IMG/VR virus record: IMGVR_UViG_2897346870_000001
Location: 1-41,297 of that record
Length of the DNA stretch: 41,297 bases
DNA from: a virus
Taxonomy: Duplodnaviria; Heunggongvirae; Uroviricota; Caudoviricetes
Reading direction: 5' to 3' (one strand)
Part shown: positions 5,088-35,387 of the stretch, piece by piece
Position numbering within the stretch: the stretch's first letter is position 1
Layout: each line of letters begins with the position of its first letter
Notes under the pieces: generated by a model
Databases searched by the model: none
Told to the model about the DNA's origin: nothing
Seen by the model: the letters and a program-made list of their open reading frames with translations, nothing else
Translations under genes and position numbers: made by a program

Positions 5088-5102
5088 TTACCTATTAGGT
5101 AA
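5088..5102. promoter_or_regulatory. OL-like operator palindrome TTACCTATTAGGTAA
   Basis: Near-perfect 15-bp inverted repeat at the head of the leftward early operon, just downstream of the repressor gene terminator. Confidence 0.5.
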
Positions 5103-5111
5103 TAGTATAGG

Positions 5112-5138
5112 CAATAAAAAAGCCGCCAGAAGGCGGCT
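5112..5138 (-). terminator. Rho-independent terminator of the repressor gene
   Basis: GCCGCC-AGAA-GGCGGC hairpin followed by a T-run on the minus strand, immediately 3' of the repressor CDS. Confidence 0.6.
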
Positions 5139-5159
5139 TACTTACTGAAAAGTATGATT

Positions 5160-5744
5160 TTATTGTTTGTTTTTTTCGTTCTGGTTGATGACAAATTCAA
5201 TATAACTTTCGATCTTTGCTTTCTCGGTTTCGGGTAACAATGCGTAGCGCGAGCGGTCATAGTTGATGGTCGCAGGGTCGTGCGGGTGAATCAGTAATTC
5301 ATAGCCGTGACGCCCGAATGCGGATGCAACATTCTCCAGGGTGGAAATGGAAACGCTGACCTCATTGTTTAACAGGCGGCTGATTGTCACCTGGGCGACG
5401 CCGGATGCGCGGTGAAGTTTTCCCTGTGTTGAAAGGTCGCGGCTTTCGCTCATCCAGCGTTCCAGGTTGTGAGCCGCCAGCTGACCAATGTCGCTTGGGC
5501 CGACAGGCTGAAAACCTTCCTGAGAAAGCGAGCGATCGATATCAAGCCAGTTACGTGGTTTATTGGCGGCAGCTTCAATTTTTCGCGCAACCTGGTCGCC
5601 GATAACCTTCTTGCCAAGAGCCCAGCGGTTTACCAGATTTGCCTGAGTTCCAAGTTTTTCTGCCATCCGCGTCTGAACACCATTGAATTCACGGTCGATC
5701 AAGTCGTTGAGATTTTGCCTGCGGACGTCCTGGATACTTTTCAT
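5160..5744 (-). CDS. Prophage repressor, tandem HTH (XRE-type), no peptidase S24 domain
   Basis: 194 aa with two HTH-like segments (TRMAEKLGTQANLVNRW and ASGVAQVTISRLLNN); divergent from the Cro-like gene across a three-operator region; no LexA-like Ser/Lys autocleavage module recognised. Confidence 0.75.
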   Translation of the reverse strand: MKSIQDVRRQNLNDLIDREFNGVQTRMAEKLGTQANLVNRWALGKKVIGDQVARKIEAAANKPRNWLDIDRSLSQEGFQPVGPSDIGQLAAHNLERWMSESRDLSTQGKLHRASGVAQVTISRLLNNEVSVSISTLENVASAFGRHGYELLIHPHDPATINYDRSRYALLPETEKAKIESYIEFVINQNEKNKQ

Positions 5745-5799
5745 TTTCTGGAAAATCGCCTCATATATGAATCAGTAGATGATTCAATTTAAAGCAATA

Positions 5800-5862
5800 T
5801 TACCCAACAGGTAAATGCACCTCATAGGTAACTATCCTTGATTTTTGTTACCTTATGGGTGA
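5800..5862. promoter_or_regulatory. Tripartite OR-like operator region with divergent promoters
   Basis: Three 15-bp sites: 5800..5814 TTACCCAACAGGTAA, 5817..5831 GCACCTCATAGGTAA, 5848..5862 TTACCTTATGGGTGA. Candidate rightward promoter (-35 TTGTTA 5845..5850, -10 TATTAT about 5868..5873) overlaps the third site. Confidence 0.55.
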
Positions 5863-5898
5863 ATATTTATTATCTGAAATAAATATCAGGCAATAGCT

Positions 5899-6129
5899 AT
5901 GAGCGATAACGGACATTTCGATTTCAAAAAGCACTGGCTTGCACTTACTCCGGATGAGCGTGAAGCCTTCGCACAGGAAGCCGGAACGACGAGTCACTAT
6001 ATCCAGACTCACTTAACAGGTAAGCGCAAAATGCCAGGTAAAGTATTGATGAATGGGCTTTTTAAAGCCTGTAAAACAAGACAATGGCTGCGCTCAAAAG
6101 CAGAACTGGCATACTTCTTCTACTCATGA
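5899..6129 (+). CDS. Cro-like small HTH regulator
   Basis: 76 aa, divergent from the repressor across the operator cluster and followed by a tR1-like terminator; family assignment is positional rather than by a strong motif. Confidence 0.5.
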   Translation: MSDNGHFDFKKHWLALTPDEREAFAQEAGTTSHYIQTHLTGKRKMPGKVLMNGLFKACKTRQWLRSKAELAYFFYS

Positions 6130-6151
6130 TATCCAGCCACAACCCTCTGTA

Positions 6152-6173
6152 GACCGCCACCCGGCGGTCTTTT
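6152..6173 (+). terminator. tR1-like rho-independent terminator
   Basis: GACCGCC-ACCC-GGCGGTC hairpin followed by TTTT, directly after the Cro-like gene. Confidence 0.6.
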
Positions 6174-6184
6174 CATATCTATTC

Positions 6185-6199
6185 GCACCTCAAAGGTAA
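6185..6199. promoter_or_regulatory. Operator-like palindrome GCACCTCAAAGGTAA
   Basis: Same family as the OR sites; lies between the tR1-like terminator and the next gene. Confidence 0.4.
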
Positions 6200-6279
6200 T
6201 AAAAAACCAAATCTGGTTGATATTTTTTTTGTGTCAGCACAAAATGACCGTAATCCCAATACTAATAACAGGGCTTACC

Positions 6280-6480
6280 ATGGAAATCATTACACGTATT
6301 GATGCCGCAAAGCGCGGACTTAAACGCTACTACACCGGAAAAACATGTAAGCACGGACATGACAGTGAACGCTGGGTTTACAACGGACACTGTGTTGAGT
6401 GCACCATGGAATCAAACCGTCGTATCAGGGCAGAGATTAAGCAGATCATGATTAATTCCTCCCCACAACATTCAAGCTGA
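6280..6480 (+). CDS. Small zinc-ribbon protein (cII-position hypothetical)
   Basis: 66 aa from the internal Met (MEIITRIDAAKRGLKRYYTGKTCKHGHDSERWVYNGHCVEC); C/H-x2-H...C-x2-C arrangement. Confidence 0.4.
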   Translation: MEIITRIDAAKRGLKRYYTGKTCKHGHDSERWVYNGHCVECTMESNRRIRAEIKQIMINSSPQHSS

Positions 6481-6495
6481 TAGCGTAGATTAATC

Positions 6496-7311
6496 ATGAG
6501 CAGACATGCAACAGATTGGGCCTGGGAGACAGATCCAGGTAGCTCGTCATTAAAGCTCATACTGCTCTCGATGGCTGACAGAGCCGATGAATATAACCTC
6601 TGCTACCCCAGCATAGAACGCCTCGTTAAAGACACTTGCCTGAATAAAAAAACCGTGCAGGCCGGGCTTATATCGCTCATGAAAATGGGGCTTATTTCAG
6701 ATACCGGAGAGAGAAAGGGAGCGACGAAAAGAGTGCGGGTTTTCTCTCTTAATATAACCAAAAACGGGAACATTAAAGGCAACCGGGAAGGGGGTAATGA
6801 ACCCGAAAACGGTAATGTTACCGAAAACGGGAATATACCCAAAAACGGGATGTTGAATGATCCCAAAAACGGGATGTTGAATGATCCCAAAAACGGGATC
6901 CAGAACCAGTCATATAACCAGTCATTTAACCAAGAGAGGGAGAGCAGGACAAAAAGCGGGGATTCTGTGCCTCATGACCCCGGCGCAAACAACGCCGTGA
7001 TGAATAACTTTGTTCCTCCTGGTGGGCCAGGGCAATTAGGCAAATTTGTCATGCATGAACAATGGCAACCATCAGATGACTTTCTTCGGAAAAGCTCATT
7101 GCAGGGGATCTACCTGGACAGTCTGCCAACGGCACAGGAACTTGCAGAGTTCAGAATTTACTGGATGGCTGAGGGTAAGGCATACCATCAGGCGCAGTGG
7201 GAGCAGAAGCTGGCAAGGCGGCTGCAGATTAGCAGACAGAAGCAATCAACATTACCTGATAACAACGTTCCGCACTGGAACAGCCCTGAAGCATGGGAGG
7301 ATTTCTTGTGA
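6496..7311 (+). CDS. Replication initiator (lambda O-like organiser) with internal iterons
   Basis: N-terminal winged-HTH-like region (LKLILLSMADRADEYNLCYPSIERL); central repetitive NG-rich linker encoded by iterons; followed by a lambda P-like gene. Confidence 0.65.
   Translation: MSRHATDWAWETDPGSSSLKLILLSMADRADEYNLCYPSIERLVKDTCLNKKTVQAGLISLMKMGLISDTGERKGATKRVRVFSLNITKNGNIKGNREGGNEPENGNVTENGNIPKNGMLNDPKNGMLNDPKNGIQNQSYNQSFNQERESRTKSGDSVPHDPGANNAVMNNFVPPGGPGQLGKFVMHEQWQPSDDFLRKSSLQGIYLDSLPTAQELAEFRIYWMAEGKAYHQAQWEQKLARRLQISRQKQSTLPDNNVPHWNSPEAWEDFL
6758..6903 (+). repeat. Origin-like iteron array inside the initiator gene
   Basis: Six direct repeats with core CC(A/C/G)AAAACGG(G/T)A starting at 6758, 6802, 6820, 6838, 6862 and 6886, including two identical 24-bp units (CCCAAAAACGGGATGTTGAATGAT). 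Confidence 0.6.
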
Positions 7312-8093
7312 ACAACGTTTTTACCGCAATACAAAACCGTGACGGAGAAGCCCTTTCTCGCATGTCAGGTTATGAGCATCAGTACGTCAACAATGACAAC
7401 GTAGTGAACATGTCAGCAGAGAGGCTTGTTGATGCCCTTTTCAAACAGTTGAAACAACTGTTTCCGGCGGCAGTGGTAACCAACCTGAAGACGCCAGAGC
7501 AGGAAGTTGCTGCAAAACAGCAGTGGATTGCTGCGTTTGCCGAAGGGGGGATCCGAACCCGTGAACAGGTTTCTGCTGGTATGCGCCACGCCCGCGCCAG
7601 TGATTCTCCGTTCTGGCCGTCGCCAGGGCAATTCATCAAGTGGTGCAAAGACAGCAAGATGGTTCTTGGCGTCACCATTGACGATGTGATGGCGGAGTTT
7701 CACCGGTACAGCAAGGAAAAAAGTTTATATCCTGGTGGTCCCGAAAGATTCCCGTGGCGGCATCCGGTTATGTACTGGGTCGTATGTGATACCCGCCGTG
7801 CAATGTATCAGCGCCAGCTTAGCGAGATTGAGGTTGAGAAACACGCGCGCAGGCTGCTCGATGATTGGGCGAAAAAGGTGGCTTCCGGACAGCAGATACC
7901 CGATCCGGTGATCAGCATACAGGCAAAGCCAGAGCCCATGAGTACACCTCCGGACACAGGGAGAGACGTTTACCATCCACCAGGGCGAAGTTTCGGGTGC
8001 ATGCCTAACGCCGCCACCCTTGGGGGAATAACACCGGCGCAGTGGCTGATGGAGGAATACAGGCGAGGAAAGGCGGCAGGATTTATCAAGTAA
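7308..8093 (+). CDS. Replication protein P-like (DnaB helicase loader)
   Basis: Clear similarity to lambda P as recalled (QQWIAAFAEGGIRTREQVSAGMRHARASDSPFWPSPGQFIKWCKD vs lambda RRQWVLAFRENGITTMEQVNAGMRVARRQNRPFLPSPGQFVAWCRE). GTG start overlapping the O-like stop, with GGGAGG Shine-Dalgarno. Confidence 0.75.
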   Translation: MNNVFTAIQNRDGEALSRMSGYEHQYVNNDNVVNMSAERLVDALFKQLKQLFPAAVVTNLKTPEQEVAAKQQWIAAFAEGGIRTREQVSAGMRHARASDSPFWPSPGQFIKWCKDSKMVLGVTIDDVMAEFHRYSKEKSLYPGGPERFPWRHPVMYWVVCDTRRAMYQRQLSEIEVEKHARRLLDDWAKKVASGQQIPDPVISIQAKPEPMSTPPDTGRDVYHPPGRSFGCMPNAATLGGITPAQWLMEEYRRGKAAGFIK

Positions 8094-8130
8094 TACCAGC
8101 GCGATAGCGCATTTTTTTACGTTTCGATAA

Positions 8131-8207
8131 TTACCTGTTAGGTAATAAAATATTCTAAAATCTATTGATTTCGTGTCTTATGTGGTTTTTAATTACCTCA
8201 GAGGTAA
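8131..8207. promoter_or_regulatory. Two operator palindromes upstream of the nin-like operon
   Basis: 8131..8145 TTACCTGTTAGGTAA and 8193..8207 TTACCTCAGAGGTAA; the second overlaps the Shine-Dalgarno of the 8211 gene; motif ATGTGGTT at 8180..8187. Confidence 0.45.
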
Positions 8208-8210
8208 ATC

Positions 8211-8555
8211 ATGAGAAAACAGATACAGGCTCTTGGTCGACTCAAAACAGGACAGATGAACAAAACAGAATCTGCGTATTGCCAGCACCTTGAGCTGCGT
8301 AAACGTGCAGGAGAAATCGTCTGGTATCGATTTGAGGGTATCAAGCTGCGGTTAGCTGACAACACGTTCTATACGCCCGATTTTGCTGTGATGCTCGCCA
8401 CCGGCGAGATGGAACTGCACGAAGTGAAAGGTTTCTGGACCGACGACGCCAGAGTGAAAACCAAAGTCGCCGCAGATCAGTATCCGTTCCGAATCATCGG
8501 GGTAACGGTTAAACCAAAGAAAGCAGGTGGTGGCTGGAACATCGAAGAGTTCTGA
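8211..8555 (+). CDS. PD-(D/E)xK-fold nuclease-like protein (DUF1064/VRR-NUC-like)
   Basis: 114 aa; YTPDFAV ... ELHEVKG resembles the D...E.K motif of small phage nucleases. Confidence 0.5.
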   Translation: MRKQIQALGRLKTGQMNKTESAYCQHLELRKRAGEIVWYRFEGIKLRLADNTFYTPDFAVMLATGEMELHEVKGFWTDDARVKTKVAADQYPFRIIGVTVKPKKAGGGWNIEEF

Positions 8556-8616
8556 ATCGACGATCTTTTTAGTTATCAATGTTATCAATAAGTTATGTGG
8601 ATAAGCGAGGGTAAAG

Positions 8617-9027
8617 ATGGAAAGTAATATTAAAGGGTTAGTTTCCGCCGGGCATGAGATGGCTTCGGAACTGAAAGCAGAATGTGGTGCCGTTGATATG
8701 CGCAGTGTGGCAAAGCTGATCAGCGATTTGGCAACGCAACTGGAAGTGCAACTGGTGCGTGCTAATGTGCTGGCGGCGGAGAATGCGGGGCTGAAGAAGT
8801 TCTGCAAAGACGCTGCATTCGATGCCGATTACGAAGCAGAGCTAGGTATGGAGAGAGGTGGATTCAGTGATGCACTTAACGAAATCAAAACCCCGGCCAC
8901 CGACGCATTCCTGGCTGAAGTACGTGCGCAGGGCGTGGAGATGTTTGCTGACAATCTGTTGTGCCCAGACCTTGATGACACTATCCGTGACTTTGCTGCC
9001 CATCTTCGCAATGGAGGCAACCAGTGA
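8617..9027 (+). CDS. Hypothetical protein
   Basis: 136-aa ORF in the rightward early (nin-like) operon. Confidence 0.45.
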   Translation: MESNIKGLVSAGHEMASELKAECGAVDMRSVAKLISDLATQLEVQLVRANVLAAENAGLKKFCKDAAFDADYEAELGMERGGFSDALNEIKTPATDAFLAEVRAQGVEMFADNLLCPDLDDTIRDFAAHLRNGGNQ

Positions 9028-9323
9028 GTGTATGTCTTATTGATAAACGTCGACGTGGGCAACAAATACCATCTGTTGAAATGCCGAATCATACATGGTT
9101 TTGCGTACTTGATATCGATGGTATGGATACGTTGATCGACACTCGTCATTACTGCGATACCGCAACAGCTACACCTGCAAAAGCAAAGAAAATGGCTGCT
9201 CTGATAGAAAACTGGACTCCACCTGATGGTTGGTGCAATGGGAATGATCGAGATTGGCACGAAAAAATGAAGGGCTATATCTGCGATTTTTTACGTAAAT
9301 GCAATGGATTCAGGGTGATGTGA
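9024..9323 (+). CDS. Hypothetical protein
   Basis: 99 aa; GTG start overlapping the previous stop (GTGA) with GGAGG Shine-Dalgarno. Confidence 0.4.
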   Translation: MSVCLIDKRRRGQQIPSVEMPNHTWFCVLDIDGMDTLIDTRHYCDTATATPAKAKKMAALIENWTPPDGWCNGNDRDWHEKMKGYICDFLRKCNGFRVM

Positions 9324-9324
9324 C

Positions 9325-10140
9325 ATGAGCAAGATTGACTATCAGGCACTGCGTGAAAAGGCAGAGAAAGCAACGTGTGGTGTGTGGTCGCTCGAATATG
9401 GAGAGGGCCGATTTGATGGTGATGATGCACTAATTCATCGCGAGGCTGCTGGATATATTCCCATTTGCAGAATTGAAGGAGCGCATCCTGAAAGCGGTTT
9501 CGATGAAGATTTCCAAATAGAACAGCAGGCCAATGCTGAATTCATCGCCGCAGCCAATCCGGCTACCGTGCTGGCACTACTGGATGAACGGGAAAGAAAC
9601 CAGCAATACATCAAACGCCGCGACCAGGAGAACGAGGATATTGCGCTAACGGTAGGGAAGCTGAGAGTTGAGCTTGAGGAAGTAAAACAACACGCTGAAG
9701 AATTATCCGAAACCAAGGCTGTTCGTAACCAATGGCGGCCAGATATTTGCCCAATAACCGGACGTGCATTTTTCATGTGGATTGAGCATCCAACATTGGG
9801 GAATGTGCCGACATATGGTGGCCCATTAGATAGTTACACCATTCCAACAAAGGACGGTGACGGTGAGTTTTCATGTGAGCGTTACGATCATGATTTTGGC
9901 GGTTGGGTAGAAAGCGAATGTCTTGGGTTATATCTGATTGATGATAGAGAACAATGCAGGGTCTACGAACTGGAGGAACGCGTTAAGGAACTGGATGCTC
10001 GGGAAATATCGCTCCCGGAACGTAGCAGCATGCTTCATCGAACAGATTTTCACGATGATTACCAAACGGTAATGGCATACAAAGTTTCTGAAGTCATCGC
10101 TGCAATCCGCACCGCTGGCATTCGCATCAAAGGAGAGTGA
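9325..10140 (+). CDS. Ea22-like phage protein
   Basis: 271 aa; N-terminus MSKIDYQALREKAEKATCGVWSL... is of the type seen in lambdoid ead/Ea22-like proteins (from memory). Confidence 0.5.
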   Translation: MSKIDYQALREKAEKATCGVWSLEYGEGRFDGDDALIHREAAGYIPICRIEGAHPESGFDEDFQIEQQANAEFIAAANPATVLALLDERERNQQYIKRRDQENEDIALTVGKLRVELEEVKQHAEELSETKAVRNQWRPDICPITGRAFFMWIEHPTLGNVPTYGGPLDSYTIPTKDGDGEFSCERYDHDFGGWVESECLGLYLIDDREQCRVYELEERVKELDAREISLPERSSMLHRTDFHDDYQTVMAYKVSEVIAAIRTAGIRIKGE

Positions 10141-10141
10141 T

Positions 10142-11022: not shown

Positions 11023-11353
11023 ATCAGCAGCAGAGCGCAAAGCCGCTCAGAGAGCCAGACAAGCTGCATCTGGTGTGCGTAAGCTGGAAATTGTGCTTGA
11101 TGCTCAGGAAATTGAAATGCTGGAGCGTAACTGTGCCACGCGTCGCCCCGGGCGTGCGCCTTACGAATTTGGTGAGTATATAGCGTTACTGATCCGCCAA
11201 GATGATGCACGCGTGCACGGGCGTATAAAATCGATCAGCAGAAAACGTTGCGGTAAGTGCGGCGAGAGAGTTCCAGTTAATTCATGTCCGTGTAATGGTG
11301 ACTCACAATGCTGGGTGACTAAAGGCTGGCATGAAACGAAATTAATAGTGTGA
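11015..11353 (+). CDS. Zinc-ribbon protein, candidate late-gene regulator
   Basis: 112 aa; C-terminal [17 protein letters not shown] cysteine cluster; last gene before a promoter-plus-terminator arrangement upstream of the terminase; stop codon lies inside the GTGACATGTCAC palindrome. Confidence 0.4.
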
Positions 11354-11361
11354 CATGTCAC
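11350..11361. promoter_or_regulatory. 12-bp perfect palindrome GTGACATGTCAC (copy 1 of 3)
   Basis: Identical copies at 13615..13626 and 32779..32790, each next to a terminator hairpin. Confidence 0.5.
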
Positions 11362-11402: not shown

Positions 11403-11428
11403 GCCGCCAACTATGGCGGCTTTATTTT
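11403..11428 (+). terminator. tR'-like terminator upstream of the late genes
   Basis: GCCGCCA-ACTA-TGGCGGC hairpin followed by TTTATTTT, about 45 nt upstream of the small terminase start. Confidence 0.55.
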
Positions 11429-11471
11429 GCATGGTACTATTACCACAACGGTAACTATTACCACGGTGGTT

Positions 11472-12068
11472 ATGATGCCTGCTGAACCTAAAACCTATAA
11501 ACGCAAATCAACGCAATTTAAGCCACTAACAGCAATGCAGGAGGCTTATTGCCAGTCATACATCAAAACGCCTGAAAACCAGACTCAGGCAGCGATTAAC
11601 GCAGGATTCTCCCCAAATACAGCGGCAGTTAAAGCCAGTGTCATGATGCGCGATGAACGCATTCAAAAACGGATTGCCGAGTTGATGGAGGAGCGCAACA
11701 AACGAATGCGCGTCAGTGCTGATTACGTTCTCATGCGCCTGGTGGAGATCGACCAGATGGACGTGATCGACATCCTCAACGACGATGGGAGCCTTAAACC
11801 AATCCGTGAGTGGCCGAAAATCTGGCGCACTACGCTTAGCGGCTTTGATCTGTCATCGACCATCATGAACATGAACGAGGATTCGATAGAGACAATCCTC
11901 AAAAAAATTAAATGGCCTGACAAGGTGAAGAACCTTGAGCTGATTGGTAAGCATGTTGATGTCAACGCGTTCAAAGAACGCCTGGATGTTAATGTGAATG
12001 TGACAATTGCTGATCGCATAGCGGCAGCCAGGAAGAGACTGAAAGAACGTCAGGATGGCAATCAGTGA
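11472..12068 (+). CDS. Terminase small subunit
   Basis: Terminase_2-type pattern LTAMQEAYCQSYIKTPENQTQAAINAGFSPNTA...IQKRIAEL. Start placed at the internal ATG (MMPAEPK) after the terminator rather than the track start 11394. Confidence 0.75.
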   Translation: MMPAEPKTYKRKSTQFKPLTAMQEAYCQSYIKTPENQTQAAINAGFSPNTAAVKASVMMRDERIQKRIAELMEERNKRMRVSADYVLMRLVEIDQMDVIDILNDDGSLKPIREWPKIWRTTLSGFDLSSTIMNMNEDSIETILKKIKWPDKVKNLELIGKHVDVNAFKERLDVNVNVTIADRIAAARKRLKERQDGNQ

Positions 12069-13590: not shown

Positions 13591-13626
13591 AGCCAGCTCA
13601 TAGGCTGGCTGTTTGTGACATGTCAC
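13591..13626 (+). terminator. Hairpin after the terminase, immediately followed by GTGACATGTCAC copy 2
   Basis: AGCCAGC-TCATAG-GCTGGCT hairpin 13591..13610, then GTTT and the 12-bp palindrome at 13615..13626. Confidence 0.4.
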
Positions 13627-14335: not shown

Positions 14336-14412
14336 TGGCGTGGCATGCAGGATTCGAACCTGCGACCAACCGCTTAGAAGGCGGTTGCTCTGTCCAACTT
14401 AGCTAATGCCAC
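14336..14412 (-). tRNA. tRNA-Arg (anticodon UCU)
   Basis: 77-nt minus-strand cloverleaf: 7-bp acceptor stem GTGGCAT/ATGCCAC, anticodon stem ACCGC/GCGGT with loop CTTCTAA (UCU), T-arm GCAGG-TTCGAAT-CCTGC, discriminator G plus encoded CCA; close to E. coli argU in the 3' half. Confidence 0.85.
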
Positions 14413-14734: not shown

Positions 14735-14749
14735 TTACCTGAAAGGTAA
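14735..14749. promoter_or_regulatory. Operator-like palindrome TTACCTGAAAGGTAA upstream of the structural operon
   Basis: Perfect-arm copy of the dispersed motif; CATATGTGGTT at 14791..14801. Confidence 0.4.
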
Positions 14750-19617: not shown

Positions 19618-19941
19618 ATGGAACTCGTAAACCTCAAAACCGGCACTGACAGCTACCAGGATGAGAGCGGAGAAACCAGAACTCGCGATGAATACCCGTG
19701 GGGGCTGTGCATCACTCTTAATAACGACACATTGAATAAGCTGAAGGCGCAACCTCAGGGCGTCGGAACAGAAGTGATGATAACTGCAAAGGCTGTTATT
19801 CGAGGCCTGTCTGCCAGAGAAACTGACGATGGTGTTAATCGCAGCGCCGATCTGCAGATCACTGATATGGCGATCGCTCCTGTTTCCGGGGATGTAGAAA
19901 AATCAGCGGCTGAAACTCTGTACGGCAATGGGGGTGAGTAA
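19618..19941 (+). CDS. Hypothetical virion protein
   Basis: 107 aa from the ATG at 19618 with AGGAG Shine-Dalgarno; first gene of the tail operon. Confidence 0.4.
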   Translation: MELVNLKTGTDSYQDESGETRTRDEYPWGLCITLNNDTLNKLKAQPQGVGTEVMITAKAVIRGLSARETDDGVNRSADLQITDMAIAPVSGDVEKSAAETLYGNGGE

Positions 19942-28340: not shown

Positions 28341-30889
28341 TGGCAGCAAACGAATTTTTGACGCAGTGCGAGCGCAGTGTAAATGCTGCCGCTGGTCGCG
28401 AGCTTTCTTCCGATGAGATGGAGTCGCTGGTGCGTGACATGAACGACACCACTAGGCGAATTCTGGCGACCAATGAGGCGCTGTCTCTGGAAGAGGCCGC
28501 GATGCGCGCAGCGGAAGAACTGAGCAATGCCGATATGCTGGCAAAACAGATTGAGTCTCGCAATAAGGCAATCAACACCCGTATTGCCGCACAACGACTT
28601 AGAGAGCTTCGTACTATCTGGAAAGACCGCCCGGATATCGGGCTTGAAGCAATGCTGGTTGGCCGTAACGATGCGCGTACCGGCGCCCGCCGGTCGGTAT
28701 CTTCGGAGGTGGCGCAACTGCGCGGCAAGTATCATTCCGGTATCAACTACGATTTTGACCGTGCCGGGCTGGTGCAATTCATCGCCAGCGGCAGCAATGA
28801 CAGGGAAATTGCCGATGCAATGTGGCGCATAGGGCGCGGGCAGTCAACTGACGGTATGACAAAGCAATCCGTAAGCGCTGCACAAATCATCATGAAATGG
28901 CAGGAAACTGCGCGCATTGATGAGAACCGTGCCGGGGCATGGATACGCAAAGAGCCGGGCTATATAGTGCGCCAGTCACACGACATCATGAAGATCCGCG
29001 CCGCAGGTTATGAAGCATGGCGAAATGCTATTCTCCCGCGCCTTGATGAGCGCACTTTTGACGGCGTGGCTGACCGCGAGCAGTTCATGCGTAACATTTA
29101 TAACGGGCTGGCTTCCGGCGTGCATCTTACATCTGAAAAGCCCGATTGGATGAATGGCTTTAAGGGATCGGCGAACGCAGCTAAACGCGCCAGCCAAGAG
29201 CGAATTTTGCACTTCAAAGATGGTATCTCGTGGCACGAGTACAACCAGCAATTCGGCACCGGCAGCCTGCGAGAGGCGCTGTTTGGTGGCTTAAACAGCG
29301 CTGCCCGCACAACGGGCATGATGCGCGTATTGGGCACTAACCCACAGAACATGTTTAAGTACCTGACGGACACCATTGCTGAAGATATCAGCAAATCCGG
29401 AAGACCGGCAGCGTTGGCTGACTACATGACGAAGGTGCGTCGCATTAACCGTACCGTAATGCCGCAGGTTGACGGCTCGCTAAATATTCCTGGCAGCGTA
29501 GGCTGGGCCAATGCGTCGGCGGCTGTACGCGGCTGGTTGCGTATGAGCCAGCTTGGTGGCGCGGTAATCTCATCGTTTAACGACGTGCCTATCGCCGCTA
29601 CCGAGATGCGCTACCAAGGGCAGAATTTTATGCAGGCGTTGCTTGGTGCTATGAGAGGCCGCTTCACGCGTTACAACAGCGCGGAGCAGAAAGAGATCCT
29701 TTCCTCTATCGGAGTTTATTCCGACTCCATGACGCAGGAAATCATCCGGCGCATATCTGGTGATGACACGCTGAATGGAAAACTTGGTCGCGCGCAGCAG
29801 CTTTTCTTTAAGTACAACCTCATGAACTTCTGGACCGAGAGCGGTCGCAACAGTAACGCCATGATGATAACCAACTGGCTTGCAAAGAATGCTGACCAGC
29901 CTCATGCGCGGCTACCGGAAGACCTGCGACGCGTGCTGGATCTGCACGGTATTGGCGAACGTGAGTGGGAAATTTTTCGCAACATGGACATGGCCGATAG
30001 CGAAGGTCGTAAGTTCATGACGACCAGCGGCATCCGCGGCGTGCCTGACGAAGTGATTGCCGGTTATGTAGAGAGTAAGGGGATCAAGCCAACGCAGCGC
30101 GCTATCGCTGACGCACGCGATCAATTGGAAGGGCAGTTGCGCGGCTACATCCTTGACCGCCTGAATATCGCCATGTCAGAGCCTGGCGATCGCACGCAGG
30201 CGTTTATGAAGATGGGCACGGTGCCAGGAACGGTGGCTGGGGAAGCAATACGATTCGCTGGTCAGTACAAATCGTTCACTGCAAGCTTCATGCAGAACGT
30301 ACTAGGACGCGAAGTATTCGGGCGTGGTTATATTCCTGCTGGGCTTGGTGAGTCGAAAACCGGATCGCTGACGAATGCGCTGCTGCGTAACGGGAAGGGG
30401 GCTTTCCTTGGTGCTGCAAACCTCTTTGTCTGGGCGACTATGTTTGGTTATATCTCCATGCAGTCAAAACTCATGCTGAAAGGGCAAACACCGCGCCCGG
30501 CAGATGCCAAGACGTTTCTCGCAGCCGCATCTCAGGGGGGCGGTCTTGGCATCTTGGGTGACTTCATGTTTGGCGAGGTCAACCGCATGGGGGCCGGGCC
30601 GGTTACGTCGCTAATGGGGCCGGCAGCATCGAACGCTGACAGCATTATCACGCTGCTCCAGCAGACCACGAGAGGGGATGCAGATTTGGGTGACTGGTAT
30701 CGCACGGCACTTGACAATACGCCATTCCTCAACGTGTTCTGGCTTCGTACGGCGATGAATGGTTTAATATTGAACCGGATACAAGATGCCCTTGACCCTG
30801 GCTCTCTTGAGCGTTATCAGCGCCGTGTTGAGCGTGAGCAGGGTAACGAATTTCTGATTCCACCATCGCAGTTCATGCTAGGGAAGTAA
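28337..30889 (+). CDS. Large internal virion (ejection) protein
   Basis: 850 aa, last of three large core proteins before the tail fibre region. Confidence 0.5.
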   Translation: MMAANEFLTQCERSVNAAAGRELSSDEMESLVRDMNDTTRRILATNEALSLEEAAMRAAEELSNADMLAKQIESRNKAINTRIAAQRLRELRTIWKDRPDIGLEAMLVGRNDARTGARRSVSSEVAQLRGKYHSGINYDFDRAGLVQFIASGSNDREIADAMWRIGRGQSTDGMTKQSVSAAQIIMKWQETARIDENRAGAWIRKEPGYIVRQSHDIMKIRAAGYEAWRNAILPRLDERTFDGVADREQFMRNIYNGLASGVHLTSEKPDWMNGFKGSANAAKRASQERILHFKDGISWHEYNQQFGTGSLREALFGGLNSAARTTGMMRVLGTNPQNMFKYLTDTIAEDISKSGRPAALADYMTKVRRINRTVMPQVDGSLNIPGSVGWANASAAVRGWLRMSQLGGAVISSFNDVPIAATEMRYQGQNFMQALLGAMRGRFTRYNSAEQKEILSSIGVYSDSMTQEIIRRISGDDTLNGKLGRAQQLFFKYNLMNFWTESGRNSNAMMITNWLAKNADQPHARLPEDLRRVLDLHGIGEREWEIFRNMDMADSEGRKFMTTSGIRGVPDEVIAGYVESKGIKPTQRAIADARDQLEGQLRGYILDRLNIAMSEPGDRTQAFMKMGTVPGTVAGEAIRFAGQYKSFTASFMQNVLGREVFGRGYIPAGLGESKTGSLTNALLRNGKGAFLGAANLFVWATMFGYISMQSKLMLKGQTPRPADAKTFLAAASQGGGLGILGDFMFGEVNRMGAGPVTSLMGPAASNADSIITLLQQTTRGDADLGDWYRTALDNTPFLNVFWLRTAMNGLILNRIQDALDPGSLERYQRRVEREQGNEFLIPPSQFMLGK

Positions 30890-30890
30890 T

Positions 30891-31262
30891 ATGAACAGAA
30901 TTATATTAATGATTATTCTTATGCTTTTAGTTGTAAAATCTTTTGCAGATACTACCTCACCGTTAATGATTCAGCCTAAAAATGGGGAAACACTGGAGGA
31001 TTCTAAAAAGCATACAATGGAATATTTTGGATGTATAAAAGGGCAGGCCGTAAAATACGCTAAGACAGGAGAAAGTGTTGATTCTATATCCAAAGCTTCG
31101 GTTGTGTCATGCGAGTCGTACATACAAAAGATTGCTGAATCAAATATATACTATTTAAATTCCTCTCAAGACGGTAAGCGGAAATTTATTGGAAGGCTTA
31201 AATCAGATGGTGAAAGTTTAGCAACGAAATTTGCTATGGATGAAAAGCTAAAAAATAAATAG
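30891..31262 (+). CDS. AT-rich moron: secreted protein with signal peptide
   Basis: 123 aa; N-terminal MNRIILMIILMLLVVKSFA signal peptide, two Cys; GC content visibly much lower than neighbouring genes; start 1 nt after the preceding stop. Confidence 0.55.
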   Translation: MNRIILMIILMLLVVKSFADTTSPLMIQPKNGETLEDSKKHTMEYFGCIKGQAVKYAKTGESVDSISKASVVSCESYIQKIAESNIYYLNSSQDGKRKFIGRLKSDGESLATKFAMDEKLKNK

Positions 31263-31372
31263 GTGACTACATGCAAGCGATAGGATTCATTGGGCTGATG
31301 GTTTGCAGCTAACCTGCAAGTTTGCGAAGTGCCAAACAAATAATCTCACGGCGCTGTTCATCCCCAGGAAGC

Positions 31373-31395
31373 TGCATTGTGATTTTCACAATGCA
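31373..31395 (+). terminator. Perfect 10-bp hairpin TGCATTGTGA-TTT-TCACAATGCA
   Basis: Downstream of the moron gene; followed by GGTTTTAAA; possible end of the late transcript. Confidence 0.35.
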
Positions 31396-31412
31396 GGTTT
31401 TAAACCACTGCT

Positions 31413-31619
31413 TCATTTTCGTAAAGCCATACAAATCATGGCTTGCACCCCACCGGCAGAAGGTATGGTGATTTCCACCATACCCTTCGAGAAGCGTTGA
31501 GAAATCTTCTTATGTTGAGATTTCCAGTCTAGACCCATTCCCTCAACGATAGGTTTCATTGGGGTGTACGGTTCGCCGTTGTGATTGACAACATAAAGTT
31601 CTGCGCCGTGGAATGGCAC
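31413..31619 (-). pseudogene. Possible truncated antirepressor/Rha-like N-terminal fragment
   Basis: 68-aa GTG-initiated ORF (VVNHNGEPYTPMKPIVEGMGLDWKSQHKKI) resembling N-terminal DNA-binding domains of Rha/Ant proteins, with no Shine-Dalgarno and no C-terminal domain. Confidence 0.2.
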
Positions 31620-31766
31620 GTTGATAGTAGTGACAAATTTGAAACATCGCTGGTTGTAAGCCAGCAGATGCTCGTTATTTTACGTCGCGGCACAATTTCT
31701 CGCTGCTGGCTCTTTTACACGCATTAACCAAATATGGTTGATTTTAATATCCACCTGTGCCTATTA

Positions 31767-31846
31767 TTACCTTTGCGGTAAATTTACATCGCACTCCTCT
31801 TGTGCCATAGTAATCGGGCACTGGCAAAATCCAGTGCCGGGATTGG
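31767..31846. repeat. Inverted repeat IR-A, left copy (antirepressor promoter/leader)
   Basis: About 80 bp, near-identical in reverse complement to 34928..35007; includes operator TTACCTTTGCGGTAA (31767..31781) and the palindromic hairpin GCACTGG-CAAAAT-CCAGTGC. Confidence 0.8.
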
Positions 31847-32048
31847 TCTCCCGGATTACTACAGAGGCACATATGCCGCATAAGCGGTTTTTTTATGTGT
31901 AAAGCGCACCTATTCTATGGTGGGCTGTGTGGGGGCACCGAAAGGTGCGCCGGGTTCCTTTGTAGCCGGTAAGACCAACTCTGCACAGTTCACCACCATC
32001 TGATTGGTCTCAGCGGTGGTGATTAACCTAACTACAAAGGTGATCGCC

Positions 32049-32741
32049 ATGAATACCAAACCTTCCATCTTTTCCTTTGAGTCATCCTGCCAGATCCGTA
32101 TGTTCATGATTGACGGAGAACCTTGGTTTGTCACCAAAGATGTGTGCAATGCTTTGAATATTGATGTTACACAAGCGAGAAAACTTGATAAAAAAGGCTG
32201 GAACAAAAAGGGGCTGTATTCAATACAGACCCCTGGTGGAATACAAGAACTATCCATCGTTTCAGAATCAGGTCTCTACATCCTTATTCTGCGTTGCAAA
32301 GAGGCAATGACTGAGGGAACGAGAGCATTCAGATTTCTTGAATGGGTTACAGGTGAGGTTCTTCCTCAGATCCGCCGCACCGGAAGCTACATTAAAAACT
32401 CGCTCCCGCAGGAAGAGCGCATAAAGATGGTTGCCGACCAGGTAGCCAACGCCACGGCGTCAGCAGTAATGCAGGCGATGAAGATAGAGAACAAAACCTA
32501 CAGTGCCCCACTGAAGCCCGGCTACCGCAGCCTGATTCATTCGCCGTCTGGTGTTCTCGGCCTGACGGAGAACTCACTGCTGATGAATCTGCTGAACCAG
32601 TTACAGGAAGACGGGCATGACGTATCGGGCGCGGCGGCGGAGTTGACCACCATGTTCTGCTACATCGTCGGTGTGAACAAATGCCTGCGTGATATCCAGA
32701 CGCACGCGGAGTACATCAACGACAAAGCAGGGTTCTTCTGA
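32049..32741 (+). CDS. Antirepressor, BRO-N N-terminal domain plus shared C-terminal domain (copy 1)
   Basis: N-terminus MNTKPSIFSFESSCQIRMFMIDGEPWFVTKDVCNALNI is a BRO-N-type fold; C-terminal 125 aa nearly identical to the gene at 34013..34723; AGGTGA Shine-Dalgarno. Confidence 0.7.
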   Translation: MNTKPSIFSFESSCQIRMFMIDGEPWFVTKDVCNALNIDVTQARKLDKKGWNKKGLYSIQTPGGIQELSIVSESGLYILILRCKEAMTEGTRAFRFLEWVTGEVLPQIRRTGSYIKNSLPQEERIKMVADQVANATASAVMQAMKIENKTYSAPLKPGYRSLIHSPSGVLGLTENSLLMNLLNQLQEDGHDVSGAAAELTTMFCYIVGVNKCLRDIQTHAEYINDKAGFF

Positions 32742-32743
32742 CG
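32341..32743. repeat. Inverted repeat IR-B, left copy (3' half of antirepressor 1)
   Basis: About 400 bp, near-identical in reverse complement to 34011..34413; produces mirrored 61-aa artefact ORFs in the track (32392..32577 and 34177..34362). Confidence 0.85.
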
Positions 32744-32778
32744 AGCGGCGGCACAGGGATGTGCAAAACGAAACTATC

Positions 32779-32815
32779 GTGACATGTCACAGGCCGCTTT
32801 CGCGGCCTTGTTTTT
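32779..32815 (+). terminator. GTGACATGTCAC copy 3 fused to a strong rho-independent terminator
   Basis: Palindrome 32779..32790 directly followed by AGGCCGC-TTTC-GCGGCCT plus TGTTTTT (32791..32815). Confidence 0.7.
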
Positions 32816-32975
32816 AACGAATGCCACCGCCACCCGGGCGGGAATCCGCAGAACGCCCACCGCAGCGGGAGCCGTCAGCAGCAGTGTCGCTGTCGTGCTG
32901 ACAACGACCGGCAAAGGCCTGAGTTGAAGCTACCAGAGACAACAAAACGAACAGTGCAGCAAATGCTTTTTTCAT
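32814..32975 (-). CDS. Small secreted protein (53 aa) with signal peptide
   Basis: MKKAFAALFVLLSLVASTQAFA signal peptide then a Gly/Arg/Asp-rich 31-aa mature region with two Cys; start at the internal ATG of track ORF 32814..33047. Confidence 0.4.
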   Translation of the reverse strand: MKKAFAALFVLLSLVASTQAFAGRCQHDSDTAADGSRCGGRSADSRPGGGGIR

Positions 32976-33056
32976 TGTGAAATTTCCATCTATAAACCAC
33001 CTCAATGTGGCGTCAATGAGTGTAGCACTGACTTTTGTTTCGTCCATAAAAAACTA

Positions 33057-33569
33057 CTATGCAGGCTTTTTGGATTTGTACGAATAATCCCACGGATAAA
33101 CATTTCTACTAAGTGGAGCTGTATTCGTTCGTTCATGAAATAATTTTGTGAAATTCAATACGGAATCCATCCAAACTTTTGCGTTAGCTTTGGTGTGTGC
33201 GGGCGGGTCCCAATAAGCTAGTAAGGCTGCATCTCTTATTTCATTGACTGCATATATGAGATATGCGTTACTGGTTGGTTTTGGCCTGTAATTTCCTTGT
33301 TCATCAATCAATCCATATGACCACTCATCCCAACACTGTTCAGTACATGAGTATGAATATGATGCATATTCACCAATATTGACATGAACCTTTCTGAGAT
33401 GGAAGCCTAATACTTCCTCTGGTCTTTCAAAAAGAGTATCTTTTCCCAGATCAGGATGATGACCATGACGCCAGTGTTGTTTAAAAGCATCTTTTAGCGA
33501 AATCAGAAAGTCATCAGTTTTAAACTCACCAGTAGGTATAACCTTCCCGCTATACTCACTCAAAAACAT
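33057..33569 (-). CDS. YafO-like toxin candidate (type II toxin-antitoxin family)
   Basis: By-eye alignment to E. coli YafO recalled from memory: HPDLGKDTLFE vs LPDIFGRDALYD, LRKVHVNI vs ERVAHIHL, AYLIYAVNEIRDAALLAYWDPPAH vs AHLVYCQGAFDEQAWLLIAILKPEPH. AT-rich; overlaps the upstream gene by 14 nt. Confidence 0.5.
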   Translation of the reverse strand: MFLSEYSGKVIPTGEFKTDDFLISLKDAFKQHWRHGHHPDLGKDTLFERPEEVLGFHLRKVHVNIGEYASYSYSCTEQCWDEWSYGLIDEQGNYRPKPTSNAYLIYAVNEIRDAALLAYWDPPAHTKANAKVWMDSVLNFTKLFHERTNTAPLSRNVYPWDYSYKSKKPA

Positions 33570-33882
33570 CGAATTCCTCTTCCTTCATATGCGTTTCTAA
33601 TGAGTTAAGCTGGCGGAAAGATATCTCTTTTGATTCTGCAGATGAGAGCTTTTTTATCCGCTTTATATTCTTTGTGATAGGAATAGACATTGTATGCACA
33701 TCAGCGGATGCTCTTGGCTTTGTGCTGATAAAAATATGGCGCAATGCCGCATTTTCACTATTGAACGAGCCAATAGCTGATTTACGTGCTACAACCTTAC
33801 CAGTAAAAATACGACTCTTGCTACGCTTTGCATGAGTTCCGCTTCTTACCGGACCTCTCATCACGAATCCAAGTTTTGTCAT
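33556..33882 (-). CDS. Putative antitoxin/partner of the YafO-like gene (unknown family)
   Basis: 108 aa, basic with acidic C-terminus (MKEEEFDVFE); first gene of a two-gene overlapping operon; GGAG Shine-Dalgarno. Confidence 0.35.
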   Translation of the reverse strand: MTKLGFVMRGPVRSGTHAKRSKSRIFTGKVVARKSAIGSFNSENAALRHIFISTKPRASADVHTMSIPITKNIKRIKKLSSAESKEISFRQLNSLETHMKEEEFDVFE

Positions 33883-33924
33883 CTTTAATCTCCGGTAAGT
33901 TACAGGTATAAAATAAAAACAGGT

Positions 33925-33939
33925 TTACCTTTAAGGTAA
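33925..33939. promoter_or_regulatory. Operator palindrome TTACCTTTAAGGTAA upstream of the toxin-like operon
   Basis: Perfect-arm copy of the dispersed motif, 43 nt upstream of the 33882 start on the minus strand. Confidence 0.45.
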
Positions 33940-34010
33940 TAGTACGCTATTCACCCACAGTCTGCAATCTGTACAGAATTATTTAAAGGCACATCCCTGT
34001 GCCGCCGTTC

Positions 34011-34413
34011 TGTCAGAAGAACCCTGCCTTGTCGTTGATGTACTCCGCGTGCGTCTGGATATCACGCAGGCATTTGCTCACACCGACGATGTAGCAGAAC
34101 ATGGTGGTCAGTTCCGCCGCCGCGCCCGATACATCATGCCCGTCGTCCTGCAACTGATTCAGCAGATTCATCAGCAATGAGTTCTCCGTCAGGCCGAGAA
34201 CACCAGACGGCGAATGAATCAGACTGCGGTAGCCGGGCTTCAGCGGGGCGCTGTAGGTTTTGTTCTCTATCTTCATCGCCTGCATTACTGCTGACGCCGT
34301 GGCGTTGGCTACCTGGTCGGCAACCATCTTTATGCGTTCTTCCTGCGGGAGCGAGTTTTTAATGTAACTTCCGGTGCGGCGGATCTGAGGAAGAACCTCA
34401 CCTGTAACCCATT
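34011..34413. repeat. Inverted repeat IR-B, right copy
   Basis: Reverse complement of 32341..32743. Confidence 0.85.
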
Positions 34414-34723
34414 TGCGAAAGCGGTAGGGGATAGTGCCTGGTGTCACTGCGTCGCGGCAGCGGAGGATCAGTGTGTAGAGGCCTGACTCGGAGATGATGT
34501 TGATCTCTTTTACTCGGCTGTCAAAAATTGCACGATGTTCATGCCCTATGTTGAACATAGACCTTTCATCATCATCCAGTTTTTCAAGTGCTTGGGTGAC
34601 GTTTTGGATACGCAGCGCACTACAAACGTCTTGGGCTACAAACCATGGTTGGCCATCGATAATGATGGAACGGATAGGGTTAACAGATTCAAATTTGAAG
34701 ATGGCAGTTTGAGCATTAGCCAT
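34013..34723 (-). CDS. Antirepressor, BRO-N N-terminal domain plus shared C-terminal domain (copy 2)
   Basis: N-terminus MANAQTAIFKFESVNPIRSIIIDGQPWFVAQDVCSALRI (BRO-N-type); C-terminal domain differs from copy 1 at only 2 of about 118 residues; GGAG Shine-Dalgarno. Confidence 0.7.
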   Translation of the reverse strand: MANAQTAIFKFESVNPIRSIIIDGQPWFVAQDVCSALRIQNVTQALEKLDDDERSMFNIGHEHRAIFDSRVKEINIISESGLYTLILRCRDAVTPGTIPYRFRKWVTGEVLPQIRRTGSYIKNSLPQEERIKMVADQVANATASAVMQAMKIENKTYSAPLKPGYRSLIHSPSGVLGLTENSLLMNLLNQLQDDGHDVSGAAAELTTMFCYIVGVSKCLRDIQTHAEYINDKAGFF

Positions 34724-34927
34724 GGTGGTTATCTCCACTTAGTGATTTTAATCACCACCGCAACGCCAATTACTGGTGGTGAACTGGACAAGGTTGGCGT
34801 ACCGGCCTAAGTGGTACCGGCGTCCTTTCGGACCCCTGCCCAGCCCACCATAATTCGGATATAGCTGTGCTTAACGCATAAAAAAACCACGTCTGGCGTG
34901 GTATGCGCCACTTAGTAACTCGGGACG

Positions 34928-35007
34928 CCAATCCCGGCACTGGATTTTGCCAGTACCCGATTACTATGGCACAAGAGGAGTGCGATGTAAATTTACCTCA
35001 AAGGTAA
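34928..35007. repeat. Inverted repeat IR-A, right copy (antirepressor 2 promoter/leader)
   Basis: Reverse complement of 31767..31846; contains operator at 34993..35007 (TTACCTCAAAGGTAA). Confidence 0.8.
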
Positions 35008-35038
35008 ATATAAGCACTCCACTTGGTAATTGCAAACC

Positions 35039-35296
35039 TTATCTGGTTTGCTTTCGTAATTGTTCGGCACAATAGTCGAGATGTGTTTGCAGATCCTGCA
35101 TAGACATCTGTGAGCTGGTGACGTAGTTAATCAGTGCAGTCAGTTCGGCAAGTGGGCCATCGACATTAAATCCATCCTTATCGAGATCCCGGAGTAATTT
35201 CATCAAGTGCGATCCCTCCACCAGTGATCTGACGCCTCCCGGCGTGTGAATCCTTTCGGTAAATCCCTCTTCCAGTGGATAGTGATACTGCTGCAT
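35039..35296 (-). CDS. Stand-alone paralogue of the antirepressor C-terminal domain
   Basis: 85 aa; TPGGVRSLVEGSHLMKLLRDLDKDGFNVDGPLAELTALINYV...DLQTH parallels SPSGVLGLTENSLLMNLLNQLQEDGHDVSGAAAELTTMFCYI...DIQTH of the two antirepressors; GGAGAAG Shine-Dalgarno. Confidence 0.45.
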   Translation of the reverse strand: MQQYHYPLEEGFTERIHTPGGVRSLVEGSHLMKLLRDLDKDGFNVDGPLAELTALINYVTSSQMSMQDLQTHLDYCAEQLRKQTR

Positions 35297-35372
35297 CTTA
35301 TCTTCTCCATGCAATAACTGTATAAATATACAGTATCAAATAATTTGTTTGCTATCCAGCACGTTTTGCAAA

Positions 35373-35387
35373 TCACCTGAAAGGTAA
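35373..35387. promoter_or_regulatory. Operator-like palindrome TCACCTGAAAGGTAA in the divergent region before the tailspike
   Basis: One-mismatch copy of the motif; CATATGTGGTT at 35418..35428. Confidence 0.4.

Follow-up and report, generated by a model that had tools for sequence, protein, structure and literature searches.

A recurrent palindrome as the probable Rep operator ahead of nearly every transcription unit of a phiV10/epsilon15-like prophage

A 15-bp palindrome recurs along the virus record IMGVR_UViG_2897346870_000001 (IMG/VR; Caudoviricetes), whose 41,297 nucleotides, analysed as a whole, are called here the window. Our results indicate that this dyad is very probably the operator of the prophage's own repressor, Rep, that it lies ahead of nearly every transcription unit, and that Rep would act there by promoter occlusion until it is released by a small antirepressor, Ant. 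Four lines of evidence support this reading: homology of Rep to the repressor of phage SPC32H, the annotation of phage epsilon15, conservation of the sites and their spacings, and overlap of the sites with predicted promoters. Judging by its sequence, the window is an almost complete phiV10/epsilon15-like (Uetakevirus) prophage at guaA with about 1.1 kb of host DNA attached, because the integrase gene is cut by the start of the window and the attR core ATTGAGTGGGAATGATT (core sequence taken from PMC9782041) is present at 40120-40136, with host DNA beyond it at 40137-41297. A prophage 99% identical to this one adjoins guaA.

The palindrome was first noticed in an initial annotation of the window in the form TTACCT-N3-AGGTAA, and its recurrence is real: six exact copies are present, where 100 dinucleotide shuffles gave 0.00, and if two mismatches are allowed the number rises to 18, where 0.87 are expected. 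When all palindromes with arms of 5-6 bp and spacers of 0-14 bp were counted without a preset pattern, the slightly shorter core TTACC-N5-GGTAA came out as the commonest of the window, with 10 exact copies against three for the runner-up; allowing one mismatch, it has 14 matches (0.64 expected). A weight matrix trained on SPC32H and the Klebsiella phage BUCT711 only, the window being excluded from training, gave 12 window sites of at least 14 bits against 0.1 expected, so the matrix scan and the shuffled background that had been suggested as a check both favour the motif. Each arm position carries 1.7-1.8 bits in this matrix and each position of the A/T-rich spacer 0.4-0.8 bits. The extended form of the operator can be written A-TTACC-(A/T-rich N5)-GGTAA-T; the centres of its half-sites are separated by one helical turn (10 bp).

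Fifteen sites, 12 strong and three weak, are regarded as credible and are spread over nine intergenic regions. All of them are intergenic, as had been claimed of every copy, and intergenic DNA amounts to an estimated 8% or so of the prophage according to the map of open reading frames (ORFs) and the annotation of relatives. Matches at 6009, 10327, 24259 and 38344 were discounted, being weak, within genes and at chance level; the one at 38344 was also considered as a lysis-operon site and rejected, as it is inside a gene and lacks conservation in phiV10. No dyad was found in the host DNA of the window beyond attR or in 14.6 kb of host sequence that flanks the related prophage L002. This distribution bears on the idea that the dyad is a site for a host transcription factor or an intrinsic element of promoters. 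In favour of this idea, GGTAAT resembles a weak -10 hexamer and TA-rich hexamers directly follow several sites (for example AGGTAA-TAAAAT). We reject this idea as very improbable because the flanking host DNA is devoid of copies; moreover, the position of the sites relative to predicted promoters varies (spacer, start site, upstream of -35), the dyad symmetry with its 10-bp half-site spacing suits a helix-turn-helix (HTH) dimer, and the motif travels with Rep across eight enterobacterial genera.

Intrinsic terminators divide the genome into at least nine transcription units, and every unit start examined carries one to three operators, with the exception of the lysis operon of this window. The operator-bearing units are the leftward early unit, rep/cro, the replication unit, the unit from the DUF1064 gene to gp55, terminase, portal/virion, the two Bro-N genes, an accessory (moron) unit and the tail-fibre unit. 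Every site listed in the initial annotation was found in its place, exact at 5088, 8131, 8193, 14735, 33925 and 34993, with one mismatch at 5800, 31767 and 35373 and with two at 5817, 5848 and 6185, while a pair of sites near the terminase gene terS had been overlooked.

Repressor gene rep (5160..5744, minus strand) is followed by a terminator (5120-5139, minus strand), which separates it from operator OL2 (TTACCTATTAGGTAA, 5088..5102, 26.4 bits). Downstream of this terminator lies a predicted leftward early promoter (PL), TTGACA-17-AATTAT (minus strand, 5068..5040), which agrees with the consensus at 10 of 12 positions. OL2 sits upstream of its -35 hexamer, and operator OL1 (TTACCGTTGAGGTAA, 5026..5040, 19.4 bits), at a distance of 62 bp from OL2, directly adjoins the -10 hexamer and extends over the start region, so that the promoter is bracketed by the two operators. 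This arrangement is recognisable in epsilon15 too. An orphan TTACCT half-site is present beside OL1, at 5013-5018; what had been described as a long-spacer variant spanning 5013..5040 proves to be this half-site together with OL1, an ordinary site with exact core.

On the other side of rep, three sites lie between its start (5744) and the start of a gene for a Cro-like 76-aa regulator (5899..6129, plus strand), with spacings of 17 and 31 bp. This triple, likened earlier to the operators OR1-3, is real and conserved. The OR3-like site (TTACCCAACAGGTAA, 5800..5814, 19.9 bits) is nearest to rep, whose promoter it would overlap, and has orthologues at SPC32H 34390, epsilon15 33341 and BUCT711 6402. 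The OR2-like site (GCACCTCATAGGTAA, 5817..5831), 17 bp from it, has a weak left arm; its orthologues at SPC32H 34407, epsilon15 33358 and BUCT711 6419 are exact. The OR1-like site (TTACCTTATGGGTGA, 5848..5862, 14.6 bits) is situated between the -35 and -10 hexamers of a predicted rightward promoter, TTGTTA-17-TATTAT (5845..5873, plus strand). Behind the cro terminator (6151-6170), a weak site (GCACCTCAAAGGTAA, 6185..6199, 9.4 bits), with orthologues at phiV10 33112 and Tyrion 35365, precedes the replication unit of gp42, a DnaT-like gene and P.

A second 62-bp pair follows P. Its first member (TTACCTGTTAGGTAA, 8131..8145, 24.6 bits) occupies the spacer of the predicted promoter TCGATA-16-TAAAAT of the DUF1064-to-gp55 unit, and the phiV10 record marks a terminator just ahead of the orthologous site; the second (TTACCTCAGAGGTAA, 8193..8207) is located ahead of the DUF1064 gene (ATG at 8211). 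The right arm of the latter site (GAGGTAA) doubles as the ribosome-binding site of this gene, the ATG following 3 nt on, and the same overlap is seen in phiV10, SPC32H and BUCT711. Further to the right, the overlooked pair lies between a terminator (11403-11420) and terS: TTACCACAACGGTAA at 11440-11454 has an exact core (19.6 bits), and its neighbour TTACCACGGTGGTTA at 11458-11472 has one mismatch. One site (TTACCTGAAAGGTAA, 14735..14749, 20.8 bits) is found upstream of the operon of gp06, portal and virion genes.

The remaining operators belong to the accessory and tail-fibre region. Two of them cover the start sites of predicted promoters of Bro-N genes: TTACCTTTGCGGTAA (31767..31781) at TTGATT-18-TATTAT, driving Bro-N gene 1 (32004-32741, plus strand), and TTACCTCAAAGGTAA (34993..35007) at the leftward TTGCAA-17-TATATT, driving Bro-N gene 2 (34013-34738, minus strand). 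TTACCTTTAAGGTAA (33925..33939, 23.9 bits) stands upstream of the leftward moron unit, whose three genes, among them a YafO-like ORF, run from 33882 down to 32814. The last site, TCACCTGAAAGGTAA (35373..35387, 19.6 bits), is found where ant and the tail-fibre gene diverge; its most likely place is the spacer of the tail-fibre promoter, whose TTGCAA (35365-35370) was read by eye and is below the scan threshold. Over the whole window, seven of 35 sigma70-like matches overlap an operator, compared with 0.65 by random placement (maximum 4 in 2000 trials).

The assignment of the dyad to Rep is supported by a known repressor. The 194-aa Rep is 100% identical to phiV10 gp40 and to ORF21 of ZX5, and it matches SPC32H Rep (PDB 5d50_A, E=4e-42) over its full length, query residues 1-190 aligning with chain residues 2-197. 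The structure of SPC32H Rep has been solved alone and with its antirepressor (5D50, 5D4Z). According to a secondary account (PMC9986798), the N-terminal domain of this protein binds DNA, the middle domain mediates dimerisation, and the C-terminal domain serves tetramerisation and Ant binding; another such account (PMC9638917) states that the protein binds DNA as a tetramer, pairs of N-terminal domains from different dimers reading 'palindromic DNA sites', and that Ant breaks up this tetramer. By homology, the window Rep is predicted to have the same three domains. Its Pfam matches are of HTH type only, with HTH_3 at residues 106-147, and the search found no S24 peptidase (Peptidase_S24) domain. 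The protein had been called a tandem-HTH repressor, a description that does not hold: the HTH_3 region belongs to the part (residues 89-190) that aligns with 5D4Z, a crystallised C-terminal fragment of SPC32H Rep comprising the dimerisation and the tetramerisation domain, and would correspond to the middle dimerisation domain, whereas DNA is bound by the N-terminal domain in the SPC32H homologue.

Further support comes from epsilon15: in its GenBank record AY150271.2, seven features are labelled 'protein_bind / repressor / lysogeny', namely those at 12-27, 2931-2947, 19895-19911, 32479-32494, 32554-32570, 32616-32632 and 35906-35922. Of these, one each precedes terS and the portal operon, one lies between gp19 (in the position of ant) and the tailspike gene, three are at PL, and one follows the replication genes; they are orthologues of the terS (12-27), portal (2931-2947), ant/tail-fibre (19895-19911), PL and 8131 sites of the window. 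The three PL features read ATTACCATTTTGGTAAT, ATTACCTTTTGGGTAAT and ATTACCATTTTGGTAAT, that is, ATTACC-N5-GGTAAT. Because these sites are labelled as repressor sites and the motif is conserved at orthologous positions, a single-repressor regulon is supported. The phiV10 record is without repressor-site features, the study of ZX5 (PMC9782041) tests Rep by overexpression and defines no operator, and a full-text literature search gave no accessible description of the motif or of the epsilon15 or phiV10 operators.

Conservation in related prophages, which had been named as one point on which the motif could fail, is high, with nearly fixed spacings. Exact copies of the core number eight in phiV10, 10 in SPC32H, 11 in epsilon15, nine each in Tyrion and BUCT711, eight in BUCT554 and four to seven in about 8 kb of each of six further enterobacterial Rep loci; each of 13 Rep-encoding loci has 4-11 copies. 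With up to one mismatch, epsilon15, Tyrion and BUCT554 have 14-15 matches each, compared with less than one expected. The core occupies orthologous positions in seven Uetakevirus genomes and in five of the six further loci, the sixth not having been read site by site. Spacing of the PL pair is 61-63 bp, and exactly 62 bp in 9 of 12 loci (besides the window, in phiV10, SPC32H, epsilon15, Tyrion, BUCT554 and the loci L008, L011 and L013; 63 bp in BUCT711 and L010, 61 bp in L012). The DUF1064 pair is spaced by 62 bp in all seven genomes and four further loci and by 61 bp in L012, the OR triple by 17 and 30 or 31 bp, and the terS pair by 18 bp (20 bp in BUCT554). The motif accompanies Rep through Escherichia, Salmonella, Klebsiella, Enterobacter, Citrobacter, Erwinia, Superficieibacter and Scandinavium, and the operator arms are kept while spacers and flanks drift, over a range of Rep identity from 100% down to 42%.

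This pattern also weighs on the possibility that the repeats are mere relics of module junctions, that is, of recombination boundaries in a mosaic phage, and take no part in regulation. Sites are indeed located at module borders, and the copies at 31767 and 34993 belong to a 105-nt inverted duplication. Relics would nevertheless hardly keep their arms while spacers and flanks drift, hold 62-bp and 17-bp spacings almost exactly and overlap promoters, and we find this explanation scarcely credible.

The window Rep is 42-78% identical to Rep proteins of the genus, with 66 invariant columns, and in all six members aligned helix 3 of the N-terminal domain reads NLVNRW. Five loci of distant homologues that share the N-terminal domain only do not contain the motif, and the four that were aligned have another helix 3 (SIVNQH or TQVSRL). 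This contrast supports the assignment weakly, because the homologue genome scan used peptide patterns that included the recognition helix or the N-terminus and was thus biased. Ant is 89% identical between the window prophage and SPC32H, yet the Rep it targets is only 42% identical, and Rep divergence is greatest in the C-terminal half, where Ant binds.

Several observations weigh against Rep as the reader of every site. The first concerns the Cro-like protein, a homologue of phiV10 gp41 and epsilon15 gp39, which belongs to phrog_35 'transcriptional repressor' (E=5.6e-13). Its identity across the genus is 58-84%, so that it is conserved at least as well as the N-terminal domain of Rep, and its segment AGTTSHYIQ.HLT is invariant. 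An attempt to assign the sites to Rep or Cro by covariation failed: both proteins keep an invariant putative recognition segment, and conservation therefore cannot tell which of them, or maybe both, reads the dispersed sites. Secondly, no promoter passes the sigma70 scan at 6185, 11440, 14735, 33925 and 35373, that is, in five of the nine operator regions. Because of this, the initial proposal that a single repressor gates many operons is borne out by homology, annotation, conservation and promoters as to the single repressor, while gating, or promoter occlusion, is assumed at these five. Sigma70-like late promoters were specifically sought at the terS (11440) and portal (14735) sites and none was found, and we therefore make no claim of promoter occlusion there; we infer some role of Rep at these late sites all the same. 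Thirdly, no recognisable dyad is present upstream of the holin/lysis operon, in 37895-38207, whereas phiV10 (24692), SPC32H (24782) and epsilon15 (24704) have one. In ZX5, overexpression of ORF21 lowered the transcripts of holin and endolysin by 99.97-99.99% and eliminated free phage (PMC9782041); since the window prophage has no lysis-operon dyad, this repression of lysis genes by Rep could be indirect. The O-antigen acetylase gene that occupies the position upstream of the lysis genes in phiV10 is absent from the window prophage.

These points could be accommodated if the dispersed dyads were read mainly by the Cro-like protein or by another regulator, such as an AlpA-like or PerC-like protein of the early-left operon, with Rep acting only at PL and OR. 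The sites at terS and portal would then be sites of an activator or lytic regulator instead of lysogenic operators. Membership of the Cro-like protein in an HTH repressor family, its putative recognition segment, as invariant across the genus as the operator arms, and the missing sigma70-like promoters at 11440 and 14735, which fit activator-dependent late promoters, all agree with such a scheme. It is nonetheless improbable in our view. The epsilon15 curators give these same late-region sites to the repressor, one sequence serves the early clusters and the dispersed sites alike, and overexpressed Rep silences late lysis genes in ZX5. Also, CI and Cro share operators in classical switches, and binding by Cro would not exclude Rep.

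Release of Rep would depend on ant, a gene for a small antirepressor at 35039-35296 on the minus strand. Over 83 aa, its product shares 89% identity with Ant of SPC32H (start by alignment and sequence). The gene lies beside the tail-fibre gene, in divergent orientation, in the same place as SPC32H_020/021 at the tailspike gene. Upstream of its ATG, beginning at a distance of 22 bp, there is a perfect LexA box, CTGTATAAATATACAG (35318-35333); CTGT-N8-ACAG has three exact matches in the window, and this is the only one at a gene start. Ant is presumably an SOS-controlled inactivator of Rep. Induction probably runs from LexA through Ant to Rep, because a perfect LexA box directly precedes an ORF resembling SPC32H Ant, and not through RecA-dependent cleavage of the repressor, because Rep lacks the S24 peptidase domain. 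An antirepressor operon had been placed among the operator-controlled units; the Bro-N genes do follow operators, but the SOS-sensing antirepressor is Ant behind its LexA box, not Bro-N.

For Rep as the reader of the dyads, the following course of events can be proposed. In the lysogen, Rep tetramers would occupy the dyads and occlude the promoters, each pair of N-terminal HTH domains reading one dyad, so that one tetramer can hold two operators. At the 62-bp pairs, where the two sites are about six helical turns apart on the same face of DNA, a single tetramer could hold both and enclose the promoter, while at single sites the operator overlaps the promoter spacer or the start site. DNA damage would lift LexA from 35318-35333, the small Ant would be made and would disassemble the Rep tetramer, and all gated units would be released together. 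Bro-N proteins, themselves Rep-gated and now released, may reinforce the switch.

The window prophage shows every testable defining feature of the epsilon15/SPC32H-type Rep-Ant-LexA immunity system as far as its genes and sites can be predicted: full-length Rep without S24, Ant divergent from the tail-fibre gene, the LexA box, and dyads at PL, OR, terS, portal, ant/tailspike and the junction of replication and late genes. It shares with epsilon15 (repressor gp38) the core dyad, site positions, the 62-bp PL cluster and the genome organisation; it differs in Rep, only 42% identical, in additional sites before the two Bro-N genes and the moron unit (which are absent in epsilon15) and in the missing lysis-operon site. 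The epsilon15 record marks seven of 15 detectable sites and leaves the OR triple unmarked. Likeness to SPC32H extends to a full-length Rep homologue, an Ant 89% identical and in the same place, the LexA box at ant and orthologous dyads (10 exact in SPC32H). According to secondary accounts, binding, tetramer and Ant action were shown with the SPC32H protein, whereas for the window Rep they are predicted by homology; and the C-terminal half of Rep has diverged far more than Ant. Because the epsilon15 sites are annotated and the homologous Rep of SPC32H has been studied, the prophage can be regarded as an ordinary member of a known system. The arrangement is largely not new, and for the E. coli lineage the map is new as annotation, not as biology.

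Comparison with other repressors places the system more precisely. As in lambda with its CI and Cro, the repressor and cro genes of the prophage are divergent and enclose three operators, another cluster is found at the leftward early promoter, and the operators are dyad-symmetric. In contrast to lambda, the Rep of the prophage lacks the S24 autocleavage domain and induction goes via an antirepressor, and operators are found also at replication, packaging, virion, tail-fibre and accessory units. These units are separated by terminators and each has its own operator; no antiterminator was identified, and no search for one was made. Phage P1 C1 and the 'stoperators' of mycobacteriophage L5 gp71 are known examples of one repressor with many dispersed sites in a genome, including sites ahead of an antirepressor. 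A resemblance to the P1 C1 regulon had been suggested, and it stands as an analogy of function: the window too has operators dispersed over many units (nine regions), including those of two Bro-N genes. It does not extend to relationship. The P1 and L5 sites are asymmetric (17 bp and 13 bp, respectively) and the proteins are unrelated, whereas the window sites are perfect dyads; L5 sites act inside transcription units in an orientation-dependent manner, whereas those of the window are symmetric and located at unit starts, several of them after terminators. SPC32H Rep is the only structural relative of the window Rep found, and its family matches are of XRE/HTH_3 type, the C1 sequence not having been directly compared. 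Plasmid pLS20 Rco is similar in architecture: it is a TetDloop tetramer that loops DNA, and SPC32H Rep, according to PMC9986798, likewise combines a DNA-binding domain at the N-terminus with a TetDloop tetramerisation domain at the C-terminus and has a matching antirepressor logic. For Rep, on the other hand, looping is only suggested, by the near-invariant 62-bp operator pairs.

Duplicated sequences characterise the accessory region. The two Bro-N genes are convergent, with 75% aa identity and near-identical C-terminal halves, and are part of two inverted repeats, 31757-31861 / 34913-35017 (105 nt, 91%) and 32239-32742 / 34012-34515 (504 nt, 89%). The operators at 31767 and 34993 and their leaders belong to the 105-nt duplication, the leader at 34993 being an inverted copy of that at 31782. 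These repeats flank a 1.3-kb segment with the moron unit, which recombination between the repeat arms could invert. Only one Bro-N gene is present in phiV10. A toxin operon had been listed among the controlled units; the Pfam match of the YafO-like ORF, at 20.1 bits, is below the cutoff of 25, but the matching region of phage TL-2011b contains a feature that bears the name of a YafO-family toxin in RefSeq. Since operators gate the Bro-N genes as well as the moron unit, these are probably not lysogenic-conversion genes.

The ZX5 region labelled 'anti-repressor' aligns to the Bro-N segment of the window with 94.5% DNA identity, and overexpression of a Bro-N 'anti-repressor' in ZX5 lowered the prophage titre (PMC9782041). 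A feed-forward role of Bro-N in induction is plausible, although inferred. It forms part of a broader and more tentative proposal, rather doubtful as a whole, that joins one immunity specificity for all Uetakevirus phages, a very tight micro-loop formed by a single Rep tetramer at the 62-bp pairs, and a feed-forward lock by Bro-N, which would act after LexA-controlled Ant has started induction. The idea of a shared specificity is based on operator arms and NLVNRW invariant from E. coli to Klebsiella and Salmonella phages, with Rep down to 42% and Ant at 89% identity; that of the micro-loop is consistent with 62-bp pairs that bracket a promoter at two separate loci. If specificity is indeed shared, prophages from one host genus should be repressed by the Rep, and induced by the Ant, of a phage from another. 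Of wider interest are the conserved 62-bp pairs, as looping geometry for a structurally known tetramer, and the immunity type that phages of different host genera apparently have in common.

In the immunity region (4800-8600), identity to phiV10, PAS61, phiv142-3 and other E. coli Uetakevirus podophages is 97.5-98.4%, and this region was found in 562 of 5426 complete E. coli genomes. The operator map should aid the annotation of the prophages in these genomes and the prediction of accessory genes silent in the lysogen, and it supports engineering of phiV10-type reporter phages.

Some other features of the window deserve mention. A tRNA-Arg gene (anticodon TCT; 14336-14412, minus strand) is located in the 0.7 kb that separate the portal operon from the terminase unit, as in the related prophage L002 and in SPC32H. 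Six direct repeats of 18-24 bp with the core (A/C)CC(A/G)AAAACGG(G/T)A are present at 6750-6902 within the DnaT-like replication gene (6496-7311), and they look like origin iterons embedded in an initiator gene, by analogy with lambda O. A second over-represented perfect palindrome, GTGACATGTCAC, has three exact copies, at 11350-11361, 13615-13626 and 32779-32790, and one to three exact copies in each of seven phage or prophage loci examined, for example at phiV10 2262 and 19493, SPC32H 2145, 19634 and 38629, and epsilon15 2142, 19517 and 39612. It bears no annotation in the epsilon15 record. Nearly all inspected copies are at the 3' end of a transcription unit, next to an intrinsic terminator hairpin, and the copy at 11350 includes the stop codon of the last early-right gene; the palindrome may bind a protein or serve as an RNA 3'-end element.

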